Below are positions 1,891-41,532 of a stretch of 42,476 nucleotides of DNA, one piece after another. The translations under genes and the position numbers were made by a program. Below the pieces are notes generated by a model that worked only from the letters and a program-made list of their open reading frames with translations, ran no database searches and was not told where the DNA came from. Source of the stretch: Escherichia phage forsur; sequence record MN850617.1; one strand, 5' to 3'. Position 1 is the first letter of the stretch; every line of letters starts with the position of its first letter.

Positions 1891-2124
1891 ATGAGCAGAT
1901 ACCAACGAGCCATTGAGGATACCGTGGTCGAGAAAGGTGTGTGCGGGGAGTGCCACGGCTGTGGCACATTCACCAGCATGACCATTCGACACGAGCTTGT
2001 CCAAACTGAATGTGAAGCCTGTGGTGGCACAGGCGTGACTGACCCGGCACTGCAACGTTCAGTGCTGCGGGAACAAGGTATGCGCTGCCAAGTGCAGCCG
2101 GGCTATGACCAACCAACGGAGTAA
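1891..2124 (+). CDS. small zinc-finger protein (CxxC...CxxC)
   Basis: ATG 1891 preceded by AGGAG; product contains CGECHGCG and CEACGG Cys pairs. Confidence 0.6.
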   Translation: MSRYQRAIEDTVVEKGVCGECHGCGTFTSMTIRHELVQTECEACGGTGVTDPALQRSVLREQGMRCQVQPGYDQPTE

Positions 2125-4559
2125 TGATGGACTTACTTGCTGAGCAGATTCGACTGGAAGAAGAAGCGCGAGCCAGACACCGCGAGGGCTGGCTGGATAA
2201 TATCAGAGAGGCGTTGGCCGCTGGCCGGGCTGGTTCAGTACCATTGCTCCAGCGTATGATGGTTGAGGCGTATCCTCAAGTTGAAGCTGCGATGCAAGAA
2301 CTCCTGAATGAAACTGCCCGTGGCTATGGTGCGCAGTACCGGACATACATGCGGGAGCTGGGGCCGCGAGCTTGTGCCTCACTCGCGTTGAGCATGGCTG
2401 TGTCCGGTGCCGCTGCTGAGCAAGCAGTGCTTAACTTGCTCAAGGACATGGGCAAGGCTCTCATGGCTGAGGTGGTGTACCTTCGGGCCAAGGCTGCCGG
2501 GCCTGTGCAGGCTGCGTACATGGCCAAGGTTAAGACTGACGTTAAGCGCTCTCGTTCCAAGTCAGCTAACCATGTGTATAACAAGGCGAAAGCGTCGGCG
2601 TCTAACGTTGGCGTTGAGCTGGATATCCTGCCACAGCGTGCGCTCATCACCATTGGTAAGATGATGATGAAGTGCATCGAGCCTACTGGTCTGCTGGTCA
2701 CTATGCGTGTCGGCGGCAACCACCGTCAGCGCGGCACCGCGCACTTCGCACTGCATGAAGATGTGCTGGCAACGATGAAAGATTGGATGGACTTGCCACG
2801 GGCAGACGGCCTGTGCTGTCCTCCAATGATTATCCCGCCAGCGCAGATTGCACGCGATGGTCGTAGTGGTATGTGGCACTCGCCGGGGCAGGCTGCCATG
2901 TACCGGGCAATCAGCCGCATGAACCACCGTGGCTACCGTGCGCTGGGTGTTGACCCACTGCCCATCATAGAGCCGTGTATGATGCTCAGCAGCGTTCCGT
3001 ACCGAGTTAACCCAATGGTATTGGAGTTCCTGAGAACGAACCGTACAGGCGTTATGGGGCTGCCTGTGCCGCCTCGTGAGCCTAAGCTCCCGTTCACCAT
3101 CCCGGCTGGTGTCAGCTTCGCTCAGTACATTAGCAAGTTCCCACCAGAAATGCAGCAGCAGATGGAGTCGGAAGCCCACGAGTACAAGGTGAAGACCCGT
3201 CTGTATTACAACGAGCTGCGCAAGTTCACGTCACAAATGCTGGCGCTGAACGGTGCAGTCAAAGAGGCCGAGCGCTATGCGCCATACGATAGGGTATATC
3301 TCCCGACTTACGCCGATACGCGGGGCCGAATTTATTATTCTTCGACCCTTAACCCTCAGTCCATCGACGCGGTGCGAGCGCTGCTCGAACTTGCTGAACC
3401 AGTGGCTCTCGGAGACGAGGGGCTGTTCTGGCTCAAGGTACATGTTGCGAATTGTTTTGGATACGACGCCACCGACTTCGACGACCGGGCGGCGTGGACG
3501 GACAAAACACTCCCCCGACTACGTGAGGCGTGCCGTCTTCCAGAGGCATTTGATTCGTTCTGGTCAGAAGCCGATAGCCCTATCTCAGCGTGGGCTGCTG
3601 CTGTTGAACTCATTCGAGCTATCGACTCAGGAAGTCCTGAGACTTATCCCTGCCGAGTGGTTACGCAGTGGGACGCTACATGTTCAGGACTCCAGCACCT
3701 CAGTGCGATGCTACGCGATGAGGTTGGAGGTGCTGCTGTCAATCTTGTCGATAGCGTGGGAAGAAAAGCAGACATATATCTTAAGACGGCAGCAGCGGCG
3801 ATGCAGGCTCTTGAAGAAAGTGAAGCGGCTGCGCCGACGACAATGGGTTCGTGGCTTGTTTCCATCGGCATTGTTCGGGCTATGGCCAAGAAGCCAGTGA
3901 TGACCTACGTGTACGGGGCAACCCGGCACGGCATGGTTGACTACTACTGCCTGTATCTGCGTGAGAACCGGGTCAAGCTGCCGGAGGGTAAGAGCCTGCT
4001 GGAGTGTGCTCAGTTCATTGCTGAGTTTATGTGGGCTGCTATCCCCCGCGTCGTGCCGAAAGCTGCCGAGCTGATGGCATGGTTGCAGGCTATCGCAGTA
4101 GAGGCTGCGAGCATGGGTGAGTACGTGGAGTTCACTGCGCCGTCCGGTCTTCGTGTGGTCAATCTGTATCAGGCCAGCAAAGAGATTGCGCTGAACAACA
4201 TCAACCTCATGGGTATCCACGGCATCAAGCTGCGCGAGTATCTGGATAAGCCAGATGGTCGCAAGTGTGCCGCTGCGATTGCTCCGAATTTTGTACACGC
4301 CATGGATGCCAGTCACATGATGAAGGTTCTGTGGGAGATGTGGAATAACGGGGTATACATGGTATCCATCCACGACTCGTTCGGTGTAGCGGCAGCCCAT
4401 GCTGGGTTACTGCACAAGGTCATCCGTGAAAAGTTTGTGCAGATGTATGAGGAATGTGACCCTATTCAGCAACTTGCGTCAGCATATAACCGTGAAGCTC
4501 CAGCTCGCGGTAATCTGGACATCCAGCTTGTGAAGAAATCAAGCAAGTTCTTCTGCTGA
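2124..4559 (+). CDS. single-subunit DNA-dependent RNA polymerase (T7-like)
   Basis: 811-aa ORF; contains QWDATCSGLQHLSAM (cf. T7 RNAP motif A DGSCSGIQHF) and VSIHDSFGV (cf. T7 motif C IHDSFG). Position immediately upstream of the structural module. Confidence 0.95.
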   Translation: MMDLLAEQIRLEEEARARHREGWLDNIREALAAGRAGSVPLLQRMMVEAYPQVEAAMQELLNETARGYGAQYRTYMRELGPRACASLALSMAVSGAAAEQAVLNLLKDMGKALMAEVVYLRAKAAGPVQAAYMAKVKTDVKRSRSKSANHVYNKAKASASNVGVELDILPQRALITIGKMMMKCIEPTGLLVTMRVGGNHRQRGTAHFALHEDVLATMKDWMDLPRADGLCCPPMIIPPAQIARDGRSGMWHSPGQAAMYRAISRMNHRGYRALGVDPLPIIEPCMMLSSVPYRVNPMVLEFLRTNRTGVMGLPVPPREPKLPFTIPAGVSFAQYISKFPPEMQQQMESEAHEYKVKTRLYYNELRKFTSQMLALNGAVKEAERYAPYDRVYLPTYADTRGRIYYSSTLNPQSIDAVRALLELAEPVALGDEGLFWLKVHVANCFGYDATDFDDRAAWTDKTLPRLREACRLPEAFDSFWSEADSPISAWAAAVELIRAIDSGSPETYPCRVVTQWDATCSGLQHLSAMLRDEVGGAAVNLVDSVGRKADIYLKTAAAAMQALEESEAAAPTTMGSWLVSIGIVRAMAKKPVMTYVYGATRHGMVDYYCLYLRENRVKLPEGKSLLECAQFIAEFMWAAIPRVVPKAAELMAWLQAIAVEAASMGEYVEFTAPSGLRVVNLYQASKEIALNNINLMGIHGIKLREYLDKPDGRKCAAAIAPNFVHAMDASHMMKVLWEMWNNGVYMVSIHDSFGVAAAHAGLLHKVIREKFVQMYEECDPIQQLASAYNREAPARGNLDIQLVKKSSKFFC

Positions 4560-4586
4560 ATAAAGCATTGTATTCCTTGCTTATTT

Positions 4587-4609
4587 ATGAAAGTGACTAT
4601 AGTGATAGA
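4587..4609 (+). promoter_or_regulatory. candidate phage RNAP promoter (T7/SP6-class core ACTATAG), putative +1 G at 4602
   Basis: ATGAAAGTGACTATAGTGATAG; the ACTATAG heptamer matches the -6..+1 core shared by T7 and SP6 promoters. Lies in the intergenic gap just after the RNAP gene. Exact inverted copy at 26463..26485; 14-mer direct copy at 4854..4867. Confidence 0.5.
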
Positions 4610-4852: not shown

Positions 4853-4853
4853 A

Positions 4854-5273
4854 ATGAAAGTGACTATTATGGGAAATACAACGCACACGACTATGCCTCT
4901 TGACATTCGGCGTGCGGTGGCCGAGGGCATACAAGCCGAGCGGCCATGGTCAGACCTATCTCCCGATGTGATAGTCGAACGCATGTACGAGGCCACTGCC
5001 GCTGGTTGCGTTGACGTTTACATTACTGCCGACGACGATGGCCTCATGGCTGTTGCTCACATCGGCAGGTTATTCGATATTCATGTGGGCGAGATGGTGG
5101 TCATTATGGCCTCATACGTCTGGCCCCAGTACAGAAACCGTGGAGTGATGCGTGCCATCCTCCGTGTACTCAAAGACGTGGCCCGTTCCGAGGGTGTACG
5201 TTGGTGCGGTTACTCCCACATGGTGCGGCCTTACGTTCAGGAGTACCGCTTCATAGATTTGGAGAAACCGTAA
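4854..5273 (+). CDS. hypothetical protein (139 aa; alternative start 4869)
   Basis: ORF in track; first 14 nt are a copy of the promoter-like 14-mer ATGAAAGTGACTAT, so the true start may be the in-frame ATG at 4869. Confidence 0.6.
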   Translation: MKVTIMGNTTHTTMPLDIRRAVAEGIQAERPWSDLSPDVIVERMYEATAAGCVDVYITADDDGLMAVAHIGRLFDIHVGEMVVIMASYVWPQYRNRGVMRAILRVLKDVARSEGVRWCGYSHMVRPYVQEYRFIDLEKP

Positions 5274-7114: not shown

Positions 7115-8347
7115 ATGTCTGGTGAATACCAACCTACTGCCGCACCCGCTCCCCAAAACGTACCCGCTGGCCCGACCTATTCTCCCTCTGGTCACGGCGG
7201 TAATGATTATGGTGGAAGCCCACAGGTGGTACAGAACCCAGCGCTCGGACGCTTAGGCACGCCGATTGAACTGCCGCGAGGTGGTGCAACTCCGCAGCCG
7301 CAACAGCCGTTCGGTCAACAGCCGGGCCTGATTCCAAATCAGGAGTACAACCCGTATGCCCAACCGCAGCAGGGAAACCCAAGCCCTTACGCACCCGTAC
7401 CTCAGCAGAACCCGTATGGTGCTCCGCAACCGCAAAGCCCGTTTGCGGCACCACCTATTCCGATTAATGGGTATCCGCAACAGGGCTACACGCCTCCGGG
7501 CCAAGCGGCTCCGGCACAGCAGCCGGGCTTAGCACCGAACAACCCTGCGTATGGCTTCAACCCGTATGGGCAGCAGCCTCAGCAGCAGCAGCCGCAACAG
7601 CAGGCACCTCAGCAGCCGCAGCAGCCTTTCCAGCAGTTGCAGCCGCAGCCGGGCCAGCCGCCTCAGCAGTTCCAGAATCCGAACCTAACGGCAGAGAATC
7701 TGGCAAAGCAGGAAGGTGGACTGACCGCTGACCAAGTGGCTCAGATTTTCCCGGATGAAACCAGTCGTGCTGTGTTCCAAGGTATGGACACCATCGCCCG
7801 TGGCCAGAACATCGACCTGCTTGCAGCGTTCGGTTCTGCATACGAGCGTCGTGACCCTACTCTGGTGAATGAGCGCTATCTGGCGCAGTTCGACCCACAG
7901 ACTGTATCCATCCTCAAAGGTCAATTCGGCGCACTGGTTGCCGCTGGTCAGCAGCGCGATGCTGCAATCGAACAGCAGGTTTACCAGATGGCTGGTGGCC
8001 AAGAGCGTTGGGGTCTGGCAGTGCAGGCATTCAATACCGCTGCCGACAAAGGCACGATTGATGCTGTAGTAGCGGCTGTGAACTCCGGCGACCCTAATCA
8101 GGTACGTCTGGCAGTGAACACCATTCTCCAGTTTGCTGGTTCCCAAGGGAATATGATTCAGCGTTCTGGACAAAGTTTGACGCCTAATGGTGGCGGTCAA
8201 GCACCTCGTGACGTTATGACTAACGAGGCATTCCGTCAGCATCTTGGCTGGCTTGAGCAGGCGCATCCTGTTGGTTCCCCGGAATACAACAAGCATTACG
8301 CCGTACTGGTAGAGCAGCGCCGTCAGGCCAAAGCTCAAGGTTACTAA
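7115..8347 (+). CDS. scaffolding protein with long N-terminal Pro/Gln-rich low-complexity region
   Basis: Sits between portal and capsid genes; C-terminal part (AGGQERWGLAVQAF...) resembles recalled T7 gp9 (AGGRERFDALYNHL). The N-terminal ~180 aa are P/Q/N/Y-rich repeats. Confidence 0.8.
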   Translation: MSGEYQPTAAPAPQNVPAGPTYSPSGHGGNDYGGSPQVVQNPALGRLGTPIELPRGGATPQPQQPFGQQPGLIPNQEYNPYAQPQQGNPSPYAPVPQQNPYGAPQPQSPFAAPPIPINGYPQQGYTPPGQAAPAQQPGLAPNNPAYGFNPYGQQPQQQQPQQQAPQQPQQPFQQLQPQPGQPPQQFQNPNLTAENLAKQEGGLTADQVAQIFPDETSRAVFQGMDTIARGQNIDLLAAFGSAYERRDPTLVNERYLAQFDPQTVSILKGQFGALVAAGQQRDAAIEQQVYQMAGGQERWGLAVQAFNTAADKGTIDAVVAAVNSGDPNQVRLAVNTILQFAGSQGNMIQRSGQSLTPNGGGQAPRDVMTNEAFRQHLGWLEQAHPVGSPEYNKHYAVLVEQRRQAKAQGY

Positions 8348-16057: not shown

Positions 16058-19000
16058 TTACACAAGAATCGCTCGACAAGTTCATGGCTCCCAAGCAGGG
16101 GGCCAACGCCCCTACGCTGGTGATTCCAGCTCCCGTAAAAGCTGAGACGCTCAGCACTCCACTGCAAGACGCCACTCGTCAGGGTGCCGTTGAGCAGTTT
16201 GATAAGATGCAGGAACTGGAAGCGACACCAATCGCCACGGCTTTGAGCGCTTCTGTGAAGAACTGGGATACCACTCAGCTCTTTGATGCGGCACTCAACA
16301 AGCCTGTGTTTCAGGCTGACCCGAACTTCCACCCGAACGAGGCATTGCAGAATGTCCAGTTCCCGGTGACTGAGGATGACCGCACATTCCTGTTCAAGTC
16401 CAAATCAATGGACGAGTTCAACTGGCGTACACAGCAGCTCCAAGAGATGCGCGAACGTACCCAGTTGGCTCACACTGCGCCAGTGATGAACGCAGTGCTG
16501 CAATTCGCTGACCCGCTGTACCTCGCCACTGACCTGCTCTCGATGGGAGCAGGCACTGCCCTGAAACTTGGTCGCCTCGGAACCGCCGCTGTCGGTGCAG
16601 CTTCAACTGCTGCCACTATGACAGCGGTGGGTAACGAAGCACGCCCAGTGTCTCAGAACGAGATTATCTTTGCGGCTGCCCTGCACGGGGCGGCCACCAC
16701 TGCATTCTATCGCCCCGCCGCTGCGCCAGCCCGTCGCCTTGATGAGCTGTCGCCGGAGGAATTTGCGGCAGAGATGCAGCGCCGTAACGGTATTGACCCG
16801 AACAACCCTCCGCAGTTCGACCCGAACAATGCCATGTCTCCGCTGGCAATGTCACTGGGCTTCGGGCGTCGCGGTGCCATGGAGACTGACGAGGTTCCTG
16901 AATCCATCCGGGCTGCGGCTCAGCGTGGACTCGACCTCGCTCGCCGTGGTGAGCAGACCAACCCTAAGCGTCCATTCCTTGAGTGGTCACTGTTCAAGTC
17001 GTTCAGTCAGCATTCTGACGAAGCCAGTGCTCTGGCCGGGCGTCTGCTGGATGACCCGCTGAATCCGAACATGACCTCTGCTGCTGCAATCCAGCGCGAG
17101 ACTCAGGCTCGCTTCGGTGTGCTGCTGAACCAGTATGAAGACACCCTGCGTAACGCCCTGACCACTGATGGCTGGAGTAACCTCCGGCGCTTCCGTGACC
17201 CGGTAGGCTATCGCCGGGCGCAGCAGGAGTTCGAGGCTGCTGTTCGTCTTGAGCTGGACAAGCGCATGATTGACAACAACTTCCGTGGCGCTAACCCGAA
17301 TGTGGCCGCTGCCGCCGACCGACTGGGCGAATACTCTCGCGCCGTGGGCCGGGAGCTGGAACGCAAGGGGATGGTTGAGCCGGGCTTCGTGGAGAAGAAC
17401 CCGTACTACTACCCTCGCCGGATGAACGTGACCAAGATTGAGCAGGCTGAGCAGTTGCTCGGTAAGAAGCCATTCATGAAGCAGATGACGACTGCTGTGC
17501 AGCGCGGCATCGGTACTGACCGACCGACTGCCAACGTCATTGCCCATGCCATGGTAGAGCGTGCTCGCCGTAAGGGTTACGGTATTGACAACTCCGGTAT
17601 GATTATCAACAAGGAGGGCCGCGATGAGCTGCTCGAAATCATTGAGAACTCGAAAGGACTCGACGAGGCTGCCAAGGCCCGTGCTTCCGCACTCCTTCGT
17701 GAATCTGGCTCGGACGCTGGCCGACCGTCGATGCTCAAGAGTCGTATCAACATCGACATGATGCACCAGCTCGGCCCTAACTTGCAGGTGCGTGACCTAT
17801 TCGACGACAGCATCACCAGCATGATGGATGCGTACAACCGCCGCATTACCGGGCGACTGGCTCTGCATGAAGCTGGACTGGGTACTGACGCCGAACGCGC
17901 TGCTGCTCGTGAGGCTCTGGCCAAATCCATCAAGGATGGTACGGCTCGTCGTCAGGCGCTGGAGCAGTATGACAACATCATGGCTTATTATCAGGGTGCT
18001 CCGGTCGGTGAGGAAATGCCGCAGTTCATGCGCCAGCTCTCAGCACTGACTCAGGCTACTGGTCTGGCTGCATCCGGTCTGTGGCAGTTGGTGGAATACG
18101 GCACGATGATGCAACGTTTTGGGGCGGTCAATACATTTCGCGCCATGATGCGCACAATCCCGGAAGCACGCGCATTATTTAAGCAGATGAGAGTGACTAC
18201 TAAGGAAGGTCGTCAGTTGGCCTTGGATGCTGAGGAAGCTCTGACTGCTGCGGTGGCGAGCGATATTCGTATGCGTCCAATCATGCAGCACTATGACGAC
18301 ATGTTCTCTGCTGACAAGTCACCGTGGGTTATGCGTCTTGAGCACGCCCGTGACGCCACGATGTTCATCAACATGCAGAAATACATCCACTTCCACCAGA
18401 CTCGAACCAACGCAGCTCTCGTGATGCAGACGCTGCGCAAGGCAGCAGAAGGTGATGCCAAGGCTATTGCCGCGATGAAAACCTATGGTGCCAATGATGC
18501 GCTGCTGGCTGATATCCGTAAGCAGGTTGCCAAGTCCGGCACCAAGCCGGATGCGTGGGATGAGGGTGTGTTCAACCGTACCCGCATCGTCATGATTAAC
18601 GCCATGGATGACGCTATTGTTCGCGCCCGTGTGGGCGAGCTGCCTGCATTCGCAGAGTTCAGTACCCTCGGTAAGTTCCTGTTTACGTTCCGTCGATTCG
18701 TCGCGGCTACGCACAACAAGACTCTGGTTGGTACTTGGAATCGTGAGGGTGCCCGTGGCATGGCTACGCTCATGGCGTACCAGTATCCGCTGGCGATGAT
18801 GGCCACCGCTGCCAACAACGTGATTTCCGGTAAAGCATTCTCTGACCCGGAAACCATGGCACCTAACAAGCTGGCTAGTCAAGCGCTGAATTACCTTGGT
18901 GCTATCGGCTTTGCCTCTGAGTTCACTGGTGTCCTGACTGGTCAGCAGCGTAGCTTCGGTGCGCCGGGGCTGCTGTTCCTTGACCGCGCTTATGGTGTGG

Positions 19001-19161: not shown

Positions 19162-21533
19162 TGGCGAACAGCTATAACACTTACGTGGCGAACGGTTCGC
19201 AGACCGCGTTCCTCGTTACGTTTGAGCAGCGCGTGTTCACACAGATTCAGGTGTACCTCAACTCCGAACTCCAAACGAGCGGGTACACCTACAACTCTGT
19301 GACCAAACAGATTGTCTTTGACACCGCCCCGCTCGCCGGGGTGATTGTCCGTTTGCAACGCTACACCTCTGAGACTCTGCTGAACAAGTTCGGACAGGAC
19401 GCTGCCTTTACGGGCAGCAACCTCGACGAGAACTTCGAGCAGATTCTGTTCAAGGCTGAGGAAACTCAGGAAGCATGGCTCGCGCCGCTTGACCGCGCCG
19501 TCCGTGTCCCGAACTCCGAAGTCTCCATCAACGCATTACCGAACGTCGCTGGCCGCCGCAACAAGGCACTGGGCTTTGACAGCAATGGCCAGCCGTTCAT
19601 GATTCCTCTGGTTGATATCCCTGACTCCGCGCTGGCGATTGCTCTGGCAATGGCTGACGGCGGTAAGTGGATTGGTACACTGGGCGGCGGTACGTTCCTC
19701 GACCGTCAGGATACCGTGTGCCTGTCAGAGTTCACCAACAACACCGGGTATGCCTCTGTCGCCGCTGCGGTACAAGCGTGCTTCGATTATGCCAAGGCTA
19801 ACCACAAGACTGTGGATGCCCGTGGTTGGGTCGGTACTGTCAACTCTACTGTCCTGATGGACGGTATTGAGGTTGTCGGCGGCACTTGGAACGGTACGGC
19901 TGATATCCGGCTGCTGGATTCCACATTCCGCGACTTCAAAGCCTCCACTGTCCGTGTCTGTTACTGGGGTGGTAAGGTTCGCATCTCTGATTATGAGTTC
20001 ACTGGTGCGCCGTCGAACTCCAAAGTAGCGAGCATCCTGTTCCAAGGTAACATCGCCGGGGGCAGCTACGTTATTGAGAACGGTATCCACCGCAATGGCA
20101 AGTTCGGTATTCTCCAGCAGGGTACTGGTGAGGCTATCGACAACGGCGTTATCCGCAACATCGCTATGATGAATATGCTGGGTGACGGCATCGAGATGAA
20201 CGTAATCAACAAGCACTATGATGGTGGCCTGCTGATTGAGAACATCTACCTCGAAGACCTCGACGGTACGACCGCTCCTATCCCTCTGTCCAACTGGGGC
20301 ATCGGTATCGGTATCGCTGGTCAAGGCCCGTTCGGTTGGGATGCTGCTGAAACGCAGTACGCCAAGAACGTGGTTGTCCGTAACGTCCATGCTCCGCGTG
20401 GTGTGCGTCAGGTTGTCCACTTCGAAGTTACCCGCGACAGCGTGTGCGAGAACGTGTTCTGTAACCCTGACCTCGCTGTGTCAACTGGTACTGGCCTGAC
20501 GGCGGCAGGTGTAATCACCTACGGCTGCAAGCGAATGACCATTGACGGCGTGGCTGGTGAGCCAATCAACACTGGCGCAACCTCTCCTAACGCGATTCGT
20601 CTCGTTATGTTGGAGTGGGGTGCGAACCAAGCAGGTGCAGGCGGTACGCCGGGCGCGGCATGTCCTTCGTTTGACATGACTGTGCGCAACGTGCAGACCC
20701 GTACCGGACGCTTCTATGCTGGCGTTGGCTCTGATGACGTGAACAACAACACGTACCATCTGGAAAACATCCACTGCCATACGATGAGTCTGTTCGGCGT
20801 GGCAACGCTGCTGAATATGACCAACGTGACCGGGGTAGTGTTCGATGCTGTAGGCGATGACTCCAGCGGCGGTACTTCATCCAACGGCCTATACCCGCGT
20901 AAGAAGACTGTTCTCAACATGGTGAACGTGAACTTCTACGGCGATGGCATGACTGAGGGTGCGCTGTACAGTAAGGCTCGCTATTCGGATATCAGTACGC
21001 TGAACTCCAACGTGCGTGCTATCCCGTACACCAACATCCAAGGTAACGTAGGCGTCATCCTGTCTCCGGTCAACCGCATGTACACGCTGCCGAATAACCT
21101 TGCAACCCTGACTGGTGGGGAGTTCCCGACTGGTAAAGAGTTCTGTGAGGGGACGGTGCTGTTTAAGACTGACGGCTCTGGTGGCAACTTCATCGTGACT
21201 GGCTTCGGCGCGTACATCCCGGATGACGGGAACAACTTCAAGGTGCGTGCTGCTGCCGCTGGCCAGACGTATCTTGAGCAGAACCTGACTCCGGCTGGTA
21301 CTCAGGCTTCCACCTCGTGGCTGTACCATAAGCCTATCTCGGCTGGTACTCGTCTACAGGTGCCGGGCGCTGGCGCTGGTGGTGCGCCCTTGACGGTTAC
21401 GGTGGTTCGTGCGCCTTATCAGGTGGACAATAACATCGGGAACCCGGTACGCATCGACATTACCCCGGCGCTCGTGACGGCTATCCCTGCTGGGACTCAG
21501 CTCGCCGCGACGTACCCGGTCACTTATATCTAA
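19161..21533 (+). CDS. tail fiber / tailspike with T7 gp17-like N-terminal anchor and probable right-handed beta-helix (depolymerase-like) body
   Basis: 790 aa; N-terminal ~110 aa (MANSYNTYVANGS...VRLQRYTSETLLNKFGQDAAF) parallel recalled T7 gp17 N-domain; middle region has repetitive (I/V)xNG(I/V) beta-helix-like rungs (IENGIHRNGKFGI, IDNGVIRNIAMMN). Confidence 0.85.
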   Translation: MANSYNTYVANGSQTAFLVTFEQRVFTQIQVYLNSELQTSGYTYNSVTKQIVFDTAPLAGVIVRLQRYTSETLLNKFGQDAAFTGSNLDENFEQILFKAEETQEAWLAPLDRAVRVPNSEVSINALPNVAGRRNKALGFDSNGQPFMIPLVDIPDSALAIALAMADGGKWIGTLGGGTFLDRQDTVCLSEFTNNTGYASVAAAVQACFDYAKANHKTVDARGWVGTVNSTVLMDGIEVVGGTWNGTADIRLLDSTFRDFKASTVRVCYWGGKVRISDYEFTGAPSNSKVASILFQGNIAGGSYVIENGIHRNGKFGILQQGTGEAIDNGVIRNIAMMNMLGDGIEMNVINKHYDGGLLIENIYLEDLDGTTAPIPLSNWGIGIGIAGQGPFGWDAAETQYAKNVVVRNVHAPRGVRQVVHFEVTRDSVCENVFCNPDLAVSTGTGLTAAGVITYGCKRMTIDGVAGEPINTGATSPNAIRLVMLEWGANQAGAGGTPGAACPSFDMTVRNVQTRTGRFYAGVGSDDVNNNTYHLENIHCHTMSLFGVATLLNMTNVTGVVFDAVGDDSSGGTSSNGLYPRKKTVLNMVNVNFYGDGMTEGALYSKARYSDISTLNSNVRAIPYTNIQGNVGVILSPVNRMYTLPNNLATLTGGEFPTGKEFCEGTVLFKTDGSGGNFIVTGFGAYIPDDGNNFKVRAAAAGQTYLEQNLTPAGTQASTSWLYHKPISAGTRLQVPGAGAGGAPLTVTVVRAPYQVDNNIGNPVRIDITPALVTAIPAGTQLAATYPVTYI

Positions 21534-21542
21534 GGAGAAACC

Positions 21543-21848
21543 ATGGCATCCGTGAACAAGCAGCTCGACGGGCTGCACCGGATGCTGGTGGAGTATCTGT
21601 CCGACCGCTTGGCCGACGCACGTAGGAAAGATGAGAACGGTAATATCATCGAACCTATGGCGGCGGCTGAGCTGTCCGTGCTTCGCCAGTTCCTGAAAGA
21701 CAACGGCATTCAGGCTGATAAAGACCACGCTGACGACCTGCTCGCGCTGCAAGAACAGCTCAACAACGAGAAGACCGAGGCTGGCCGCAAGGATATCATG
21801 ACTGCTGCCATCAACTCAATCGCAGAAGATAGCGGGATGATGCACTAA
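21543..21848 (+). CDS. terminase small subunit (putative)
   Basis: 101-aa ORF immediately upstream of the large terminase gene; call is by position and size. Confidence 0.6.
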   Translation: MASVNKQLDGLHRMLVEYLSDRLADARRKDENGNIIEPMAAAELSVLRQFLKDNGIQADKDHADDLLALQEQLNNEKTEAGRKDIMTAAINSIAEDSGMMH

Positions 21849-24983: not shown

Positions 24984-25335
24984 CATCCACTCGCGTATGG
25001 GCGCTGTGGAGGCTCGTATGCAATCCGTAGAAACACGCCTCGACAAACACGAGATTCAAATCGCCAACCTTGAGAAAGGTGACGCTGCTATGCTGGCCAA
25101 GCTATCGGAGAACGACTCCCGGTGGCTGGAGATTCAGCAGCAGCTCCGTGTCGTCGAGCAAATTCAGGACATTCAAAAGACTATGAGCCACATCGGTAAG
25201 CTGTTCTCTTACGCGGCTCACGCCGTCAAGTGGTGTCTCCTGACCGCTTCACTCGTTAGCGGTATCTATCTTGCGGTCAAGGCTGGCGACCTAACGGCGC
25301 TCCAGTCCTTTATCACAACGATTATGGGGATGTAA
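24952..25335 (+). CDS. holin candidate (coiled-coil N-terminal region, C-terminal TMD)
   Basis: 127 aa; hydrophobic segment VKWCLLTASLVSGIYLAV near the C-terminus; overlaps the lipoprotein gene and directly precedes the endolysin gene. Confidence 0.4.
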   Translation: MTEAKKEPAPNIHSRMGAVEARMQSVETRLDKHEIQIANLEKGDAAMLAKLSENDSRWLEIQQQLRVVEQIQDIQKTMSHIGKLFSYAAHAVKWCLLTASLVSGIYLAVKAGDLTALQSFITTIMGM

Positions 25336-25871
25336 TGACTAACTTTGAAATCTGTATGAAGTTCACCGGGCTGGCCGAGGGTGGATACACCAAGCTGCCC
25401 GGTGACACTGGAGGGGAAACCAACCATGGAATTAGTGACGCTCGTGATGGGAAGCTGGATGGCAGAGCTTGTGGTGTCCCTACTGGGCTTGGCGGCACTG
25501 TGTGCGTGCCTATCAAAGACCTCACCAAAGAGCAAGCCGAGGCAATCTATCGCCGGGACTACTACAGCCCCATCAGAGGTGACGAGCTTCACCCTGCGAT
25601 TGCATGTGCCGTGTTTGATTACGGCGTCAACTCCGGCATCTCCCGTGCTGCTAAAGCTCTACAGCGGGTATGCGGCGTTGCACAGGACGGGGACATTGGT
25701 ACTGTCACCTTGGAAGCAGCACAACGTCTGGAACCTCACGCCGCAGCAGCAGCCATCTGTGACCTTCGTATTGCGTTCCTAAAGGCTTCTAAAGCCCCGA
25801 CAGTCGTTCGGTATAGGGATGCCTTGGTTGCTCGTGCAAAACGCTGTAGCGCTTACTGTGCGACGCTGTAG
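25335..25871 (+). CDS. endolysin, GH108-type muramidase domain with peptidoglycan-binding-like C-terminal region
   Basis: N-terminus FTGLAEGGYTKLPGDTGGETNHGIS matches the recalled GH108 signature (EGGY...D.GG.T..GI); C-terminal AAKALQRVCGVAQDGDIGTVT resembles PG-binding repeats; no signal peptide. Confidence 0.8.
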   Translation: MTNFEICMKFTGLAEGGYTKLPGDTGGETNHGISDARDGKLDGRACGVPTGLGGTVCVPIKDLTKEQAEAIYRRDYYSPIRGDELHPAIACAVFDYGVNSGISRAAKALQRVCGVAQDGDIGTVTLEAAQRLEPHAAAAAICDLRIAFLKASKAPTVVRYRDALVARAKRCSAYCATL

Positions 25872-26039
25872 GGGCATCTGAAAGCTGACACATTGAACAG
25901 GCCGTGGGTGCAATACCCCGGCTTGAAAATTGAACGTTTATGCGTGGGCCTCCCTCGACCCGAATGACCGCGCGTACCCCCATGACGTGTGCGCGGATTA
26001 GCCTCGCGACGTGCGCGATATTGCTCGCGTGCGCTGCGC

Positions 26040-26450
26040 GGCGCGTCAAGAGGATTGCCTGCGTGCGGTATAGCTCGTGCGTGTCGCGTTTCATCGTCTG
26101 CCGTGTGGCGTGCTGTGCGCTGTCCTGCTGGCTGTGCTGTGCGGTGCTGTCCTATGGGGACGCTCTGCGCTGGCTGTGCTGTGCTGCGTGCTGCGCTCGG
26201 TCGGGCGGGTATCTGTCTCTTTTGCCGTGGTACGCTCTGCGCCGTGGTGGTGCTGTGTGGTGGTGGTGCTGCCGTGGTGCTGTCCTGTCTGCTGGTCTAC
26301 TGTCTGCGCCGCCAGCTCTGCGCGTCATGCTCTGCTACCTGCTGCTACTGTCCTACTGCGTTCACTGGCTGCCGCCTGTCATCCTGTCGGATTCCATCCG
26401 TTGCCGTTCCGCGCTCGCTTGTTTCGGCTGCGCCGCGCTCGCTCTGCGTA
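26040..26450. repeat. A-depleted (C/G/T only on + strand) low-complexity block with degenerate GCTG/CTGTG/GGTG repeats; candidate terminal-repeat region
   Basis: Adenine is nearly absent on the + strand over ~400 bp, so no + frame contains a stop; non-coding position between the last late gene and the early promoters. Confidence 0.6.
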
Positions 26451-26462
26451 TCTAGCGATACA

Positions 26463-26485
26463 TATCACTATAGTCACTTTCATAA
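26463..26485 (-). promoter_or_regulatory. inverted exact copy of the T7-class promoter-like element at 4585..4607 (would fire leftward into the A-depleted block)
   Basis: + strand TATCACTATAGTCACTTTCATAA is the reverse complement of 4585..4607 (23/23). Confidence 0.4.
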
Positions 26486-26499
26486 TTATCTATTGATAT

Positions 26500-26590
26500 C
26501 AGTAACTTATAACCTATCTGATAACGGTATCTATCCTATGCAATAACCTATTCAATCAAATATTTATTCCTAATGATTACAGTAACTTAT
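26500..26590. repeat. AT-rich segment with 11-bp direct repeat CAGTAACTTAT (26500..26510 and 26580..26590)
   Basis: Read directly; copies are 80 bp apart, each preceded by TGAT; candidate origin or packaging iterons. Confidence 0.4.
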
Positions 26591-26622
26591 CCACTATTTG
26601 AGCTATTCAGTGAAAATAAATC

Positions 26623-26651
26623 TTGCAATGCTGTTTGTGATTTGCTGTAAT
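26623..26651 (+). promoter_or_regulatory. host sigma70-type early promoter P1
   Basis: -35 TTGCAA (26623..26628), 17-bp spacer, extended -10 TGcTGTAAT (hexamer 26646..26651); A-rich UP-like tract upstream. Confidence 0.6.
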
Positions 26652-26726
26652 TCTCATCGCCGGGTAGCAGAACATCGCTACACGGTGGCAAGACGGTAAC
26701 ACTGCTCTTTAACAATCTGGAGTGTA

Positions 26727-26755
26727 TTGACAAGGCAAGCTCACTATGCTGTAAT
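26727..26755 (+). promoter_or_regulatory. host sigma70-type early promoter P2
   Basis: -35 TTGACA (26727..26732), 17-bp spacer, extended -10 TGcTGTAAT (hexamer 26750..26755). Confidence 0.65.
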
Positions 26756-26863
26756 GCTTCCAGTCAGCCAGACAAGCCAAACAGTCATGGATAAAGACGT
26801 TAAAACCCGCGCAGGCTAACTGGTACGGATTATTCATCTCAGAATGGGCGCTGAATAAAACGG

Positions 26864-26892
26864 TTGACAGGATGAAACGAGTATGCTGTAAT
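26864..26892 (+). promoter_or_regulatory. host sigma70-type early promoter P3
   Basis: -35 TTGACA (26864..26869), 17-bp spacer, extended -10 TGcTGTAAT (hexamer 26887..26892); AATAAAA upstream. Confidence 0.65.
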
Positions 26893-26944
26893 ACGCTCCA
26901 GATTGACAGGGCAAGCAAGCCTGACAGTCAGTAGTAAAAAGTAG

Positions 26945-26973
26945 TTGACAAGCTGAATACACTGTGTTGTAAT
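26945..26973 (+). promoter_or_regulatory. host sigma70-type early promoter P4
   Basis: -35 TTGACA (26945..26950), 17-bp spacer, extended -10 TGtTGTAAT (hexamer 26968..26973); GTAAAAAG upstream. Confidence 0.65.
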
Positions 26974-27451: not shown

Positions 27452-27844
27452 ATGTACCGTATCTATGCAAGCGCATATCGTCAGAACAACGCTGAGTGTG
27501 TTAATCTGGCGCTTCATTGCAAGGCACTGCGAACGGTGCAGGATATGTTCGGAGTGATTCCGGTCACACTGACAGGCAAGTTCGACAATGCGTATGAGTT
27601 AAGCATGGTCTTTCCTGTCGATGGAATCTACGAAATCAGACAGGCTGTTAAGCTGTTCTGTAAAGCCTTTGAACAGGACTGCATCATGGTAGTGACCGAT
27701 GACAATGATGCAATCTTCATGGATTCACCATATCCGGGCAAGCCTGCTGGCAAGTTTGTCAGCAAGACAGAAGCGGAGATGGAAGCCGGGCAGTTCACTG
27801 CTTGGACTTACGATGGTGAGCAATTTTGGGTAGTGGAGGCGTAA
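27452..27844 (+). CDS. hypothetical early protein (130 aa), first gene after the leader
   Basis: ATG 27452 with GGAG 8 nt upstream; ORF in track. Confidence 0.7.
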   Translation: MYRIYASAYRQNNAECVNLALHCKALRTVQDMFGVIPVTLTGKFDNAYELSMVFPVDGIYEIRQAVKLFCKAFEQDCIMVVTDDNDAIFMDSPYPGKPAGKFVSKTEAEMEAGQFTAWTYDGEQFWVVEA

Positions 27845-28667: not shown

Positions 28668-28952
28668 ATGACCACTAAAACTGTTCTGGCCTACGTCACC
28701 AAGAAAGGCGAAGAAGTGTACGGCTATGCTGTGTCTATCGACGGCGGCCACAACTACCTGCATCACGTTCGTGAAGAAGGTGAACCGACTGACCACGATG
28801 GCATTCTGGAAACGCTGAAAGGCATCCCGCTGCCGCACGAAATCATCTGTATGCTGGCTGGCCAGACGGAAGATGACCTGCAACTGCGTCACGGCGACGA
28901 CCTGACCATTCAGGGTATCGGCAGCTTCGAAGCTGACGTAGACGACGAATAA
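28668..28952 (+). CDS. hypothetical early protein with acidic C-terminal tail (...GSFEADVDDE)
   Basis: ATG 28668 preceded by GGAG; ORF track starts it earlier (GTG 28623) across the hairpin, which is unlikely. Confidence 0.7.
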   Translation: MTTKTVLAYVTKKGEEVYGYAVSIDGGHNYLHHVREEGEPTDHDGILETLKGIPLPHEIICMLAGQTEDDLQLRHGDDLTIQGIGSFEADVDDE

Positions 28953-31277: not shown

Positions 31278-31529
31278 ATGAGCACTCAAGCTAAGATTGT
31301 AATTCTGCGCAACGACTATGGCCGTCCTACTCCGTTCGGCACCTTCTGTCCGTTCCTCGATACCATTGAGGGTAAAGAGTACGATGTACTCATCCTTGAG
31401 CCGGGCGAAGTGGACGCCGAAGGGGATGAAGTTGACAAGCGCTCGGTCAGTTTCCGCGATGAAGTGGGTGACTTAGCTGGCGCACACATTGACTACCATG
31501 AAGGTAAGTCATTCAAGTTCGTCGAGTAA
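31278..31529 (+). CDS. hypothetical protein (83 aa)
   Basis: ATG 31278 with GAGG 6 nt upstream. Confidence 0.65.
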   Translation: MSTQAKIVILRNDYGRPTPFGTFCPFLDTIEGKEYDVLILEPGEVDAEGDEVDKRSVSFRDEVGDLAGAHIDYHEGKSFKFVE

Positions 31530-31587: not shown

Positions 31588-31833
31588 ATGGCTAAGTATG
31601 ACGTATACAAAGACGGTGAGGGTGACTGGACTATCGTACCGGAAGGGCAGCAGATTGTAGCCCCGGTCGATGTGATTGCAATGAACGGCGCGGCGGCTGA
31701 GACACTGGCTGATGTGCAGCGCATCGCAACCACCAAGCGTGCAGGCTTCGAAGCTAACCGCACGCATGTCAAGTCGCAGGCTGTCATCAATCGCTTCGGC
31801 CCGTATGAACTGGCCGGGACTATTGAAGTGTGA
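31588..31833 (+). CDS. hypothetical protein (81 aa)
   Basis: ATG 31588 with GAGAGG upstream; preceded by hairpin 31537..31558 and motif TGTCACTATCAAA. Confidence 0.65.
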   Translation: MAKYDVYKDGEGDWTIVPEGQQIVAPVDVIAMNGAAAETLADVQRIATTKRAGFEANRTHVKSQAVINRFGPYELAGTIEV

Positions 31834-32988: not shown

Positions 32989-33213
32989 GCTCACCGTAAC
33001 CAAATCACCCACCGGATTATTCTGGTGGGTAGTTGATAAGCTGCAACCAAATAAACCTTTGGCTGTGCGTGATACAAAGTGGGAAGCCGAGAGTAAACTC
33101 GAAGACCTTCAACGTATTATGCGGAATGTTATTCCAGCTTAGCCATCTACTCATGCCAGTTATTATTTAGCTGGCATTATGAAGGTGACTATATTGGACA
33201 ACCCGGAGGAAAT

Positions 33214-33381
33214 ATGTTTCGTGTATTAATGTTATTCGTACTCGTCGTTATATTGTGGGGCGCGTTATGGGTAGGCGTTGCCTATTTAATTCAGCCTTAC
33301 ATTGGCGAACAGCTTACCTCTGTAATTGGTACGCTGCTTGGGCTTTGTTGTTGGCGCAGTTGGTATGTCCAAGTGCATTGA
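33214..33381 (+). CDS. small membrane protein (55 aa)
   Basis: ATG 33214 with GGAGG upstream; MFRVLMLFVLVVILWGALWVGVAYLIQPY... has two hydrophobic helices; preceded by promoter-like GGTGACTATAT. Confidence 0.45.
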   Translation: MFRVLMLFVLVVILWGALWVGVAYLIQPYIGEQLTSVIGTLLGLCCWRSWYVQVH

Positions 33382-40557: not shown

Positions 40558-41532
40558 ATGAGTAGACTTCAACGCTTACTCCACAATGCAGAGGAACTTG
40601 ATGACCAGTTTGATGGTTACGTGTCTGGTCGTATCTTGCTGTGCGATGCTGACTCCACGGTCTACGTCGCGGCAGCAACCACGAAGAACATCGAGACAGC
40701 GAAGACACGATTCTGTTCCGGGGTACTGACCGCCAAGTTCCTCGCCAATGCTCAGTCAGTTCGTATCGAGTTGACCGCTGCGGAGTGTACGAAAGCTGGA
40801 CGGTACAAGCTGCGTGGGGCCAAGCTGTACCAAGGCAACCGAGACAAAGACCGCAAGCCCGGTCTGGTCGAACCGTTGCGTAAAGCAATTGGCCGGAACA
40901 TGTTCAACGTCCCGGATGGTGAGGACTGGTACGTCCACCTGAACTTTGAGTTCGAGGCAGACGATACCTTAATCATGGATGCGTGGACGATTGGCATTAA
41001 CGATGCAGTAATCTACAGCGCGGATAAAGACCTGCGTTGTTGGCCGGGCAGATTCCTTGACCCGTATGACAACAAGGTGCTGGAGCCGTGCGTTGGTATT
41101 GGCAGGCTGTGGTGGCATGAAACGAAAAGCGACAAGTCGCTGGTCGGCCATGGGCCTATCTTCTTTTGGGCGCAGATGTTGATGGGCGACACCGCCGACA
41201 ACATTGCTGGCGTGAAGAAGGTTGGTAAGCAGACTGCCTACGACATGCTGGTTGATTATCAAGAGATTGATGATGAATCAGTGGTTGCGGAATTGGTGCT
41301 GCGTGAGTACATGCAGCGTGACCAGAACCCGTGGCCGGAGGCAGTGGCGCTGTGGCTGTACCGCACGCCGACCTACTCATTCGCAGCCCACTTGAACACG
41401 CTGACCTTGAGCAAGGAGCTGCGTGTCTGGCTGCATAAGAAACTGGGTGAGGAATGGTATGCGGAAAGTGACTGGCGCGACTCTGTTGCAGCTTCGGAAG
41501 AATGCGATGGGTTGCAACTGCCCACTCTGTGA
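40558..41532 (+). CDS. 5'-3' exonuclease (T7 gp6-like)
   Basis: ILLCDADSTVYVAAA, FEADDTLIMDAW...AVIYSADKDLRCWP and FFWAQMLMGDTADNIAGV parallel recalled T7 gp6 segments (ILVMDGDWLVFQAM, LEGDDVMGVI...AVIISCDKDFKTIP, WHLFQTIKGDITDGYSGI). Confidence 0.85.
   Translation: MSRLQRLLHNAEELDDQFDGYVSGRILLCDADSTVYVAAATTKNIETAKTRFCSGVLTAKFLANAQSVRIELTAAECTKAGRYKLRGAKLYQGNRDKDRKPGLVEPLRKAIGRNMFNVPDGEDWYVHLNFEFEADDTLIMDAWTIGINDAVIYSADKDLRCWPGRFLDPYDNKVLEPCVGIGRLWWHETKSDKSLVGHGPIFFWAQMLMGDTADNIAGVKKVGKQTAYDMLVDYQEIDDESVVAELVLREYMQRDQNPWPEAVALWLYRTPTYSFAAHLNTLTLSKELRVWLHKKLGEEWYAESDWRDSVAASEECDGLQLPTL

Follow-up and report, generated by a model that had tools for sequence, protein, structure and literature searches.

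The 42,476-bp sequence of Escherichia phage forsur (MN850617.1; this whole stretch of DNA is referred to as the window) contains a block in which adenine is nearly excluded from the + strand. We consider this block to be probably the concatemer-junction and left-end region of a T7-supergroup podovirus of the phiKMV type, collapsed to one copy during assembly and carrying a pause motif as well as an antisense promoter. The region is of a known type (collapsed terminal repeat plus concatemer junction) with an unusually extreme base composition. The closest database records to the forsur genome all belong to Bonnellvirus (Kc261, HHU8, ROV85, the Danish "-sur" phages, and J8-65), a genus of the phiKMV supergroup in the Autographiviridae, now classed in the Autoscriptoviridae; the window is a complete, circularly permuted Bonnellvirus genome with all genes on the + strand. 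The A-poor block sits in a 1.6-kb non-coding gap, extending from the stop codon (25871) of the endolysin (25335-25871, +), the last of the lysis genes, to the start of the anti-restriction SAM hydrolase (27452-27844, +), the first early gene.

Between 26040 and 26450, A accounts for 22 of the 411 nt of the + strand (5.4%, beside 34% G, 30% C, and 30% T), compared with 22.9% genome-wide. The 300-nt window poorest in A (4.0%, z = -5.9) starts at 26055, the next lowest elsewhere reaching 15.7%. No A-free runs in the genome are longer than the top four (66, 60, 53, and 50 nt), and all of these fall inside the block. A first-pass annotation made from the letters of the DNA had described this interval as nearly A-free, and the extreme is indeed unmatched in the genome. 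Likelihood-ratio segmentation delimited the maximal A-depleted segment at 26021-26449 (429 nt, 4.9% A on the + strand and, thus, T-depleted on the - strand), with a log-likelihood ratio of 52.8 compared with 10.9 for the runner-up segment; this retained the annotated right end and moved the start by ~20 nt to the left. The degenerate GCTG/CTGTG/GGTGCTG repeats noted at the same time are present as short repeats with periods of 5 (TGCTG, CTGTG), 7 (GTGCTGC), 11 (unit of the type GCCGTGGTGCT), and 14 in the Tandem Repeats Finder output, and 12 direct-repeat families were counted. A compositional check of relatives, proposed in the annotation, revealed a comparable block throughout: all 12 bonnellviruses keep A at 5-11% even though pairwise identity drops to 50-58% with 9-16% gaps. 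Nearly half of the columns of their alignment vary, mostly swapping C, G, and T. An assembly artifact was rejected, the block being syntenic and present in 12 independently sequenced genomes.

Predicted terminal repeat and proposed concatemer junction

The location of the block is the one known for T7-type terminal repeats: the last lysis gene lies on one side and the early host promoters on the other, and the genome is unidirectional and encodes a single-subunit RNA polymerase (RNAP; 2124-4559, +) along with a terminase of the T7 type. The forsur large terminase is homologous to T7 gp19 (31.6% identity, E = 6e-66) and can be assigned to the T7 type. The Bonnellvirus type species J8-65 (NC_025445) carries annotated 259-bp repeats at 1-259 and 40723-40981, which were confirmed to be identical. 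This direct terminal repeat (DTR) aligns to 25955-26198 of the window, its left end TCGACCCGAA falling on 25955 and its right end lying opposite 26198, and the junction of CCTCCC with the following TCGAC at the predicted left end is conserved. In addition, the motif CCCCCATG (25977-25984, +) follows the pattern CCCCC(A/G)T(A/G) 23-30 nt from the predicted end, equally far from the left end as in T7, SP6, phiKMV, LKA1, KP34, RSB3, and J8-65; the terminal features at 25955 and 25977 are the same in eight phages. Based on this homology, we infer that the physical left end of forsur is 25955 and that the right boundary of the repeat lies within 26198-26213.

No 16-mer of 25955-26198 recurs in the window. 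The predicted repeat is consequently single-copy, as expected where a short-read assembler collapses the repeat and opens the circle elsewhere; such assemblers commonly collapse and permute terminal repeats of this kind. Furthermore, the discoverers of these phages remarked on an excess read abundance in the non-coding ends of the phage cluster, pointing to repeats of a few hundred bp. The virion DNA of forsur should, thus, exceed the 42,476-bp window by about 244-259 bp, one repeat copy lacking, and 25955 would be the natural genome start. The annotation had suggested that the block might be a collapsed terminal repeat or a packaging/concatemer-processing region. The DTR homology, the single copy, and the remark on read excess support this in kind; its extent needs correction, the repeat of ~244-259 bp beginning 85 bp left of 26040 and ~240 bp (about 26214-26455) being unique DNA. 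The block had been placed next to the genome end; by homology, it contains the end itself, at 25955.

The forsur stretch and the J8-65 repeat share homologous sequence and position, the terminal TCGACCCGAA, A depletion (6.9% in J8-65), and a pause-like motif located 13 nt to the right of the J8-65 repeat. They differ by low identity within this stretch (minimum pairwise 58% among the 12 relatives) with many indels, and the J8-65 record carries both repeat copies whereas the forsur assembly carries one. The LIMEzero record, which has no annotated terminal repeat, starts ~40 nt before the homologue of the J8-65 left end, recognized by the same CCTCCC-TCGAC junction, and is probably also a permuted or collapsed assembly.

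Directly right of the repeat lies the 14-mer TATCTGTCTCTTTT (26210-26223), which is unique in the window. It falls within a putative class-II-like pause or termination signal for rightward phage RNAP transcription, GGGTATCTGTCTCTTTT (26207-26223, +), with the core ATCTGTC at 26211-26217 and a T-run at 26220-26223. Among the 12 relatives the motif forms a conserved island, its flanks being rich in substitutions and indels. The exact repeats computed from records holding both ends measured 160 bp in T7, 174 bp in SP6, 324 bp in RSB3, 416 bp in phiAp1, and 259 bp in J8-65, and the offset of ATCT(G/A)T from the respective right end was 0, -1, -4, +8, and +13 nt. The forsur motif aligns with that of J8-65 and, thereby, takes the location of a class II signal at the right edge of the repeat. 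The identical 14-mer is found at the repeat boundary of RSB3 and phiAp1 (423-436 in the latter), with their large terminase being only ~45% identical to that of forsur. Scanning IMG/VR with TATCTGTCTCTTTT yielded 120 loci, nearly all of them chance matches in coding DNA, RSB3 and phiAp1 being the only informative ones.

In T7, the class II signal reads ATCTGTT on the non-template strand, and the base before it has to be A, C, or T; the polymerase stops 6-8 nt downstream, assisted by a U-run, and the motif at this position is the concatemer-junction pause signal with a role in packaging. The forsur heptamer is likewise preceded by T and followed by TCTCTTTT. By analogy, we regard TATCTGTCTCTTTT as the likely counterpart of the T7 concatemer-junction signal, at which the phage polymerase would pause. 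In the proposed mechanism, the direct terminal repeat (25955 to about 26198-26213) would be present at both virion ends and in one copy between the genomes of replicating concatemers. Late rightward transcription would pause or stop at the motif, marking the junction for the terminase, and the same pausing would keep late transcription out of the early genes of the next genome.

The unique leader right of the motif (~26224-26455) lies outside the repeat and consists of fast-evolving, degenerate A-free short repeats, with a G/T-rich part reaching about 26289 and a C/T-rich part (67% pyrimidine) beginning at 26290. No other part of the region is as divergent or as rich in gaps among the relatives (pairwise identity averaging 0.745 with a minimum of 0.50, 16% gaps), yet A stays at 5-10% in 12 out of 12 relatives. 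With the T7 junction (160-bp repeat, class II concatemer-junction pause site, SRL/SRR short-repeat arrays), the forsur region shares the position between the last late gene and the early promoters and a terminal repeat of a few hundred bp. Both have CCCCC(A/G)T ~25 nt inside the left end, a motif of the ATCTGT type with Ts after it where the repeat ends on the right, and short imperfect repeats around the terminal repeat (periods 5, 7, 11, and 14 in forsur). The repeat units themselves are different: the T7 unit ACCTAAAG is A-rich and G-poor, whereas the forsur units are TGCTG, CTGTG, GTGCTGC, and GCCGTGGTGCT. The heptamers read ATCTGTT in T7 and ATCTGTC in forsur. Moreover, the left-end phage promoter of T7 (phiOL) points rightward and its sole leftward promoter there (A0) is of the host type, in contrast to the leftward one of forsur, which is of the phage type.

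The inverted promoter element

The leader ends 8 nt before an inverted phage RNAP promoter, 5'-TTATGAAAGTGACTATAGTGATA-3' (26463-26485, -), predicted from its identity at 23 of 23 positions to a sense copy at 4585-4607 (+). This sense copy lies between the RNAP gene and the structural genes, the position of the annotated LIMEzero phage promoter at 20330. A second sense copy, TATGAAGGTGACTATAT (33178-33194, +), follows a hairpin and precedes the gene start at 33214 by 20 nt; the antisense element matches it at 15 of 17 positions. Its position is that of the annotated terminator and promoter of LIMEzero at 7255-7313, which lie upstream of the LIMEzero primase gene, the corresponding forsur genes being a middle-region cluster. 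In total, four matches to the element were found in forsur compared with 0.05 expected, defining a consensus of its own with T7-type length and an ACTATAG core. The copies co-vary over three clades, both reading ...ATAGTCAC... in forsur, ...ATAGACAC... in megetsur, and ACAGTTACTTTCATT in J8-65. A direct search of the window with the LIMEzero promoter sequences gave no close match, the forsur consensus having emerged via the inverted repeat. A third partial promoter-like copy, AATGAAAGTGACTATTA, at 4853-4869 overlaps the start codon of the open reading frame (ORF) 4854-5273; judging from the shared ATGAAAGTGACTAT, it may be a promoter remnant or a reused gene start.

The left-end element reads from 26485 to 26463 on the - strand, against the direction of the genes, and the host promoters (from 26623) lie to its right. 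Since the asymmetric flanks together with the gene context set the orientation of the element, the left-end copy is therefore most plausibly a leftward promoter. Applying T7-type geometry, transcription is predicted to start at about 26468, and a run-off RNA to 25955 would comprise ~514 nt and be U-poor. With an inverted promoter at its right edge, the block would roughly coincide with a leftward, U-poor transcription unit crossing the repeat. The first-pass annotation had stated that any leftward transcript would be U-poor; this statement gains relevance by the inverted phage promoter, which the annotation had not seen and which points into the block.

A rightward RNA through the block would be nearly without A and a leftward one nearly without U. 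Over 26050-26400, the leftward RNA folds with a minimum free energy of -23 to -32 kcal/mol per 150 nt compared with -51 to -55 kcal/mol expected from its G+C content (genome standard deviation about 7), i.e., 3-4 standard deviations worse than expected. It is weakly structured and cannot form hairpin-plus-U-run terminators. Taken together, the inverted promoter would fire leftward and convert the DNA up to the left end into an antisense transcription unit. Its almost U-free RNA, weakly structured and without U-run terminators, would on concatemers cross the repeat into the neighboring genome. Leftward transcription in forsur is a prediction made from the sequence.

A transcript of this kind has been mapped in a related phage. 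In LUZ19, ONT-cappable-seq identified P001, a copy of the phage RNAP promoter antisense to all genes (Putzeys et al. 2024, PMC10914365). The P001 transcripts extend into the genes at the right end, 15 other Phikmvvirus species conserve the motif, and the authors suggested that it blocks read-through into the early genes. The forsur element agrees with P001 in being an inverted own promoter in the early region, left of the host promoters, with transcripts (predicted ones in forsur) heading toward the genome end. It differs from LUZ19 and Phikmvvirus in the promoter sequence (GgtTATGTCACacACAnnGG there, TTATGAAAGTGACTATAGTGATA in forsur) and in that the start was mapped in LUZ19 whereas that of forsur is predicted. 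In the parts of PMC10914365 that were read, the base composition of the antisense unit found no mention.

Comparison of the left ends of nine autographivirus lineages extended this picture. In phiKMV, the motif is inverted at 731-712 and A amounts to 6-8% from there to the left end, the A-poor segment including the promoter and extending ~75 nt past it. LIMEzero has its own promoter inverted at 636-655, at the edge of the A-poor zone. In LKA1, an inverted element at 457-481 recurs on the + strand at 17842, at 21825 (directly behind the RNAP gene), and at 31512, and the A-poor segment spans 16-459. RSB3 has its post-RNAP promoter region (20795-20818, 20903, and 20991) inverted at 488-518 without A depletion. 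In forsur, no more than 14 nt lie between the end of the A-poor segment and the inverted promoter, and in LKA1 the segment ends at the inverted promoter. In KP34, the promoter copy at 477 is rightward and A depletion mild (13-17%). No inverted phage promoter was found in T7, and none in the first 2.5 kb of SP6, the only part checked for the core. Overall, of the five genera with an antisense unit, four combine it with strong A depletion.

The LKA1 element was obtained by an unbiased scan for inverted k-mers (457-481 versus 17842-17866, 21825-21837, and 31512), which points to AATTGTCGCACTA(G/T) as the likely promoter motif. The "putative LKA1 promoters" of the GenBank record (2757, 3608, 6926, and 15011) represent another motif and were set aside, no copy being located at the LKA1 left end. 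From these sequence comparisons, the antisense promoter known from the Pseudomonas Phikmvvirus appears to be more widely distributed in the phiKMV supergroup, being found also in Bonnellvirus, Waewaevirus, Stubburvirus, and Jiaoyazivirus. In the literature searched, we found no earlier report of an antisense left-end promoter beyond Phikmvvirus nor of the A-free block as the DNA that this promoter would transcribe.

Possible causes of the adenine exclusion

As the reason for the A exclusion, we prefer selection acting on the leftward transcript and its template. Such selection would favor an RNA that is free of terminators and unstructured as well as an RNA:template hybrid without the weak rU:dA pairs, the raw material being supplied by repeat slippage. 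A nearest-neighbor estimate, to be taken as indicative only, suggested that the leftward RNA:template hybrid is favored over the DNA duplex, with z = -2.5 for the post-repeat region of forsur. By the same indicative estimate, the most hybrid-favored leftward window of the forsur genome begins at 26251, z reaches -5.2 in LKA1, and RSB3 shows no effect. The results on RNA structure and hybrid stability fit selection on the antisense unit, short of proof. If the link between depletion and antisense transcription is causal, it would offer a testable handle on the role of the antisense transcript and on terminal-repeat duplication.

A stronger version considers the A exclusion an adaptive design of the antisense unit. 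With every rU:dA pair and most of the RNA self-structure removed, the leftward transcript from 26468 could not be terminated and would form an unusually persistent RNA:DNA hybrid (R-loop) over leader and repeat, aiding the duplication of the repeat during packaging. The strands of the repeat would be held apart, enabling staggered terminase nicks and fill-in synthesis to duplicate it, and early genes on concatemers would possibly be insulated as well. We regard this as unlikely; if true, it would add a transcription-driven maturation step to DTR phages, unlike the T7 pause model.

Several observations weigh against the proposed junction with its antisense unit. The boundaries of the repeat rest on homology to one annotated relative (J8-65). 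The heptamer of forsur and most relatives, ATCTGTC, matches the T7 class II signal at six of seven positions, and ATCTATC of the J8-65 clade at five of seven. With T7 RNAP, termination is reported to be lost on any alteration of the heptamer; the class II rule is that of T7 RNAP, to which the cognate polymerase of forsur is only distantly related. The promoter core ACTATAGT is palindromic, so that its orientation follows from the asymmetric flanks and the gene context. In respect to composition, RSB3 has an inverted promoter and yet 14-26% A, showing that the layout does not require depletion, and the depletion in LIMEzero fades to 13-14% A over the last 190 nt before the promoter. T7, SP6, and KP34 are mildly A-depleted in or next to the repeat and have no antisense phage promoter (for SP6 within the first 2.5 kb only). 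Finally, the hybrid stability in forsur (z = -2.5, an indicative value) is only moderately unusual.

An alternative is a composition without a function of its own. The leader and the repeat would then be a tolerated spacer in which replication slippage and unequal recombination amplify short motifs (GCTG, CTGTG, and GGTGCTG), and its lack of A would represent a frozen accident of the motif family. The many short degenerate repeats and the highest indel load among the relatives in exactly this region speak for it, as does RSB3 with the same layout and normal A. T7 adds a further argument: its post-repeat ACCTAAAG array (156-455) comprises the most G-poor 300 nt of the T7 genome (11% G, z = -5.6) and is, thus, short of another base. 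Extreme depletion of one base beside the terminal repeat is accordingly not unique to the phiKMV group, the missing base being a different one in T7. In contrast, four genera without alignable sequence converge on the same base, the same strand, and the same interval, using repeat motifs that differ by genus (GCTG/GTG in forsur, CTCT/GTG in LIMEzero, CCTGG in phiKMV, and CCCTGGTG in LKA1). Within Bonnellvirus, A is still excluded with nearly half of the columns varying. We, therefore, consider the spacer a serious rival with regard to composition, which poorly explains the convergence of four lineages and which overall appears possible rather than probable.

Another candidate cause is the avoidance of signals in the DNA that enters the cell first. 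Without A, a strand offers no sigma-70 -10 elements in either orientation, no AT-containing palindromic restriction sites, and no Dam or type I sites, so that the leading end would be protected until the SAM hydrolase is made. The block falls within the first ~500 bp of the genome and precedes both the early promoters and the anti-restriction gene, and a promoter scan found no promoter-like sites in it. The palindrome counts argue in the opposite direction, 6-bp palindromes not being depleted (2 versus 2.6 +/- 1.5 expected) and 4-bp palindromes even being enriched (39 versus 26.6 +/- 5.3), mostly as GCGC/CGCG. Moreover, the next ~1 kb, which also enters prior to expression, has a normal composition, and the equivalent region of T7 is A-rich, making avoidance a rather improbable cause.

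Two general explanations were rejected. Deamination and replication skew, considered by reasoning only, do not fit in direction or size: C is not depleted and the bias goes far past usual skews. GC skew as a factor shared by the lineages fails by their disagreement, the repeats of forsur and LIMEzero being G-rich and that of phiKMV C-rich.

Reading frames, Chi sites, and neighboring features

Three overlapping ORFs span the block on the + strand (25940-26455, 25989-26546, and 26077-26496); they are open because an A-free strand cannot encode stop codons. A Pfam search of their translations, which are low-complexity and rich in Cys, Ala, Leu, and Arg, retrieved no family at the cut-off, and most indels among the relatives within the block are not multiples of three. 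The judgment of the annotation that these ORFs are artifacts was, thus, upheld. "Hypothetical proteins" are annotated in the A-poor block of several relatives (Kc261 914-1453, HHU8 965-1513, Lidtsur gp55 3695-4102, and ROV85 gp21 and gp22 805-1371), which are very probably annotation artifacts as well. These coding sequences and the mere existence of long ORFs are what favors a block encoding a hypothetical protein or, alternatively, a structured non-coding RNA. Low-complexity translations below the Pfam threshold and frameshifting indels oppose the former. The latter is opposed by the lack of any Rfam match at E <= 1 and by folding z-scores of -0.7 to +1.5, i.e., near zero, and a known RNA family or an evolved RNA structure was rejected on these grounds. 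In either form, we consider the explanation extremely improbable.

Only slightly more credible, and still very improbable, is a Chi-like GT-rich array attenuating RecBCD that enters at the genome end. The GCTG/GGTGG motifs of the block resemble Chi (GCTGGTGG), and Chi is over-represented and strand-biased genome-wide, with nine copies compared with 2.7 expected, eight of them on the + strand (7991, 9768, 10143, 10987, 21375, 21584, 22973, and 37431) and one on the - strand (42331). An exact Chi is absent from all 12 bonnellvirus blocks, on which ground this reading was rejected; the one-mismatch variants present are sporadic and non-conserved. In addition, half of the block lies away from the right end, where this orientation would act. 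The + strand orientation is the one recognized by RecBCD entering from the right end; the strand bias may reflect codon usage on a one-strand genome.

Left of the block, 83 nt separate the endolysin stop (25871) from the predicted genome end. This spacer contains a stable G+C hairpin, GGCCGUGGGUGCAAUACCCCGGCU followed by TTGAAAATTGA (25898-25924, +; centroid fold), which is conserved in the 12 relatives and may act as a terminator or a processing site. A simple terminator scan gave no match at this position, the hairpin lacking a T-run and, hence, not being a canonical intrinsic terminator.

Right of the block follows an AT-rich stretch (26456-26617; 35% A, 37% T), which contains the antisense promoter together with a 32-nt direct repeat in two copies (CTAATGATTACAGTAACTTAT...). 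The copies are located at 26490-26521 and 26570-26601, 80 nt apart, to the right of the antisense promoter and to the left of the first host promoter, and are conserved in relatives; they may serve as a protein-binding or origin-like element. Four putative host-type early promoters with a 17-nt spacer and a TGTAAT -10 element were read from the sequence within 26623-26973 (+), conserved in relatives and of the same type as the annotated host promoters of LIMEzero. The first (26623-26651) has a TTGCAA -35 element, and the second (26727-26755), third (26864-26892), and fourth (26945-26973) share TTGACA. In the first three, TGc stands directly 5' of the -10 element (extended -10), and in the fourth TGt is located upstream of it. 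A strict consensus scan of the region for promoters and terminators was uninformative, missing these TGTAAT-type promoters with a G at position 2 of the -10 element.

Further into the early region, the palindromic 11-mer AGCTTCGAAGC recurs at 28923, 29406, and 30025 (as GCTTCGAAGC at 31745). It apparently lies in frame, encoding S-F-E-A close to where several small early ORFs end, and its recurrence suggests a family of paralogous early proteins.

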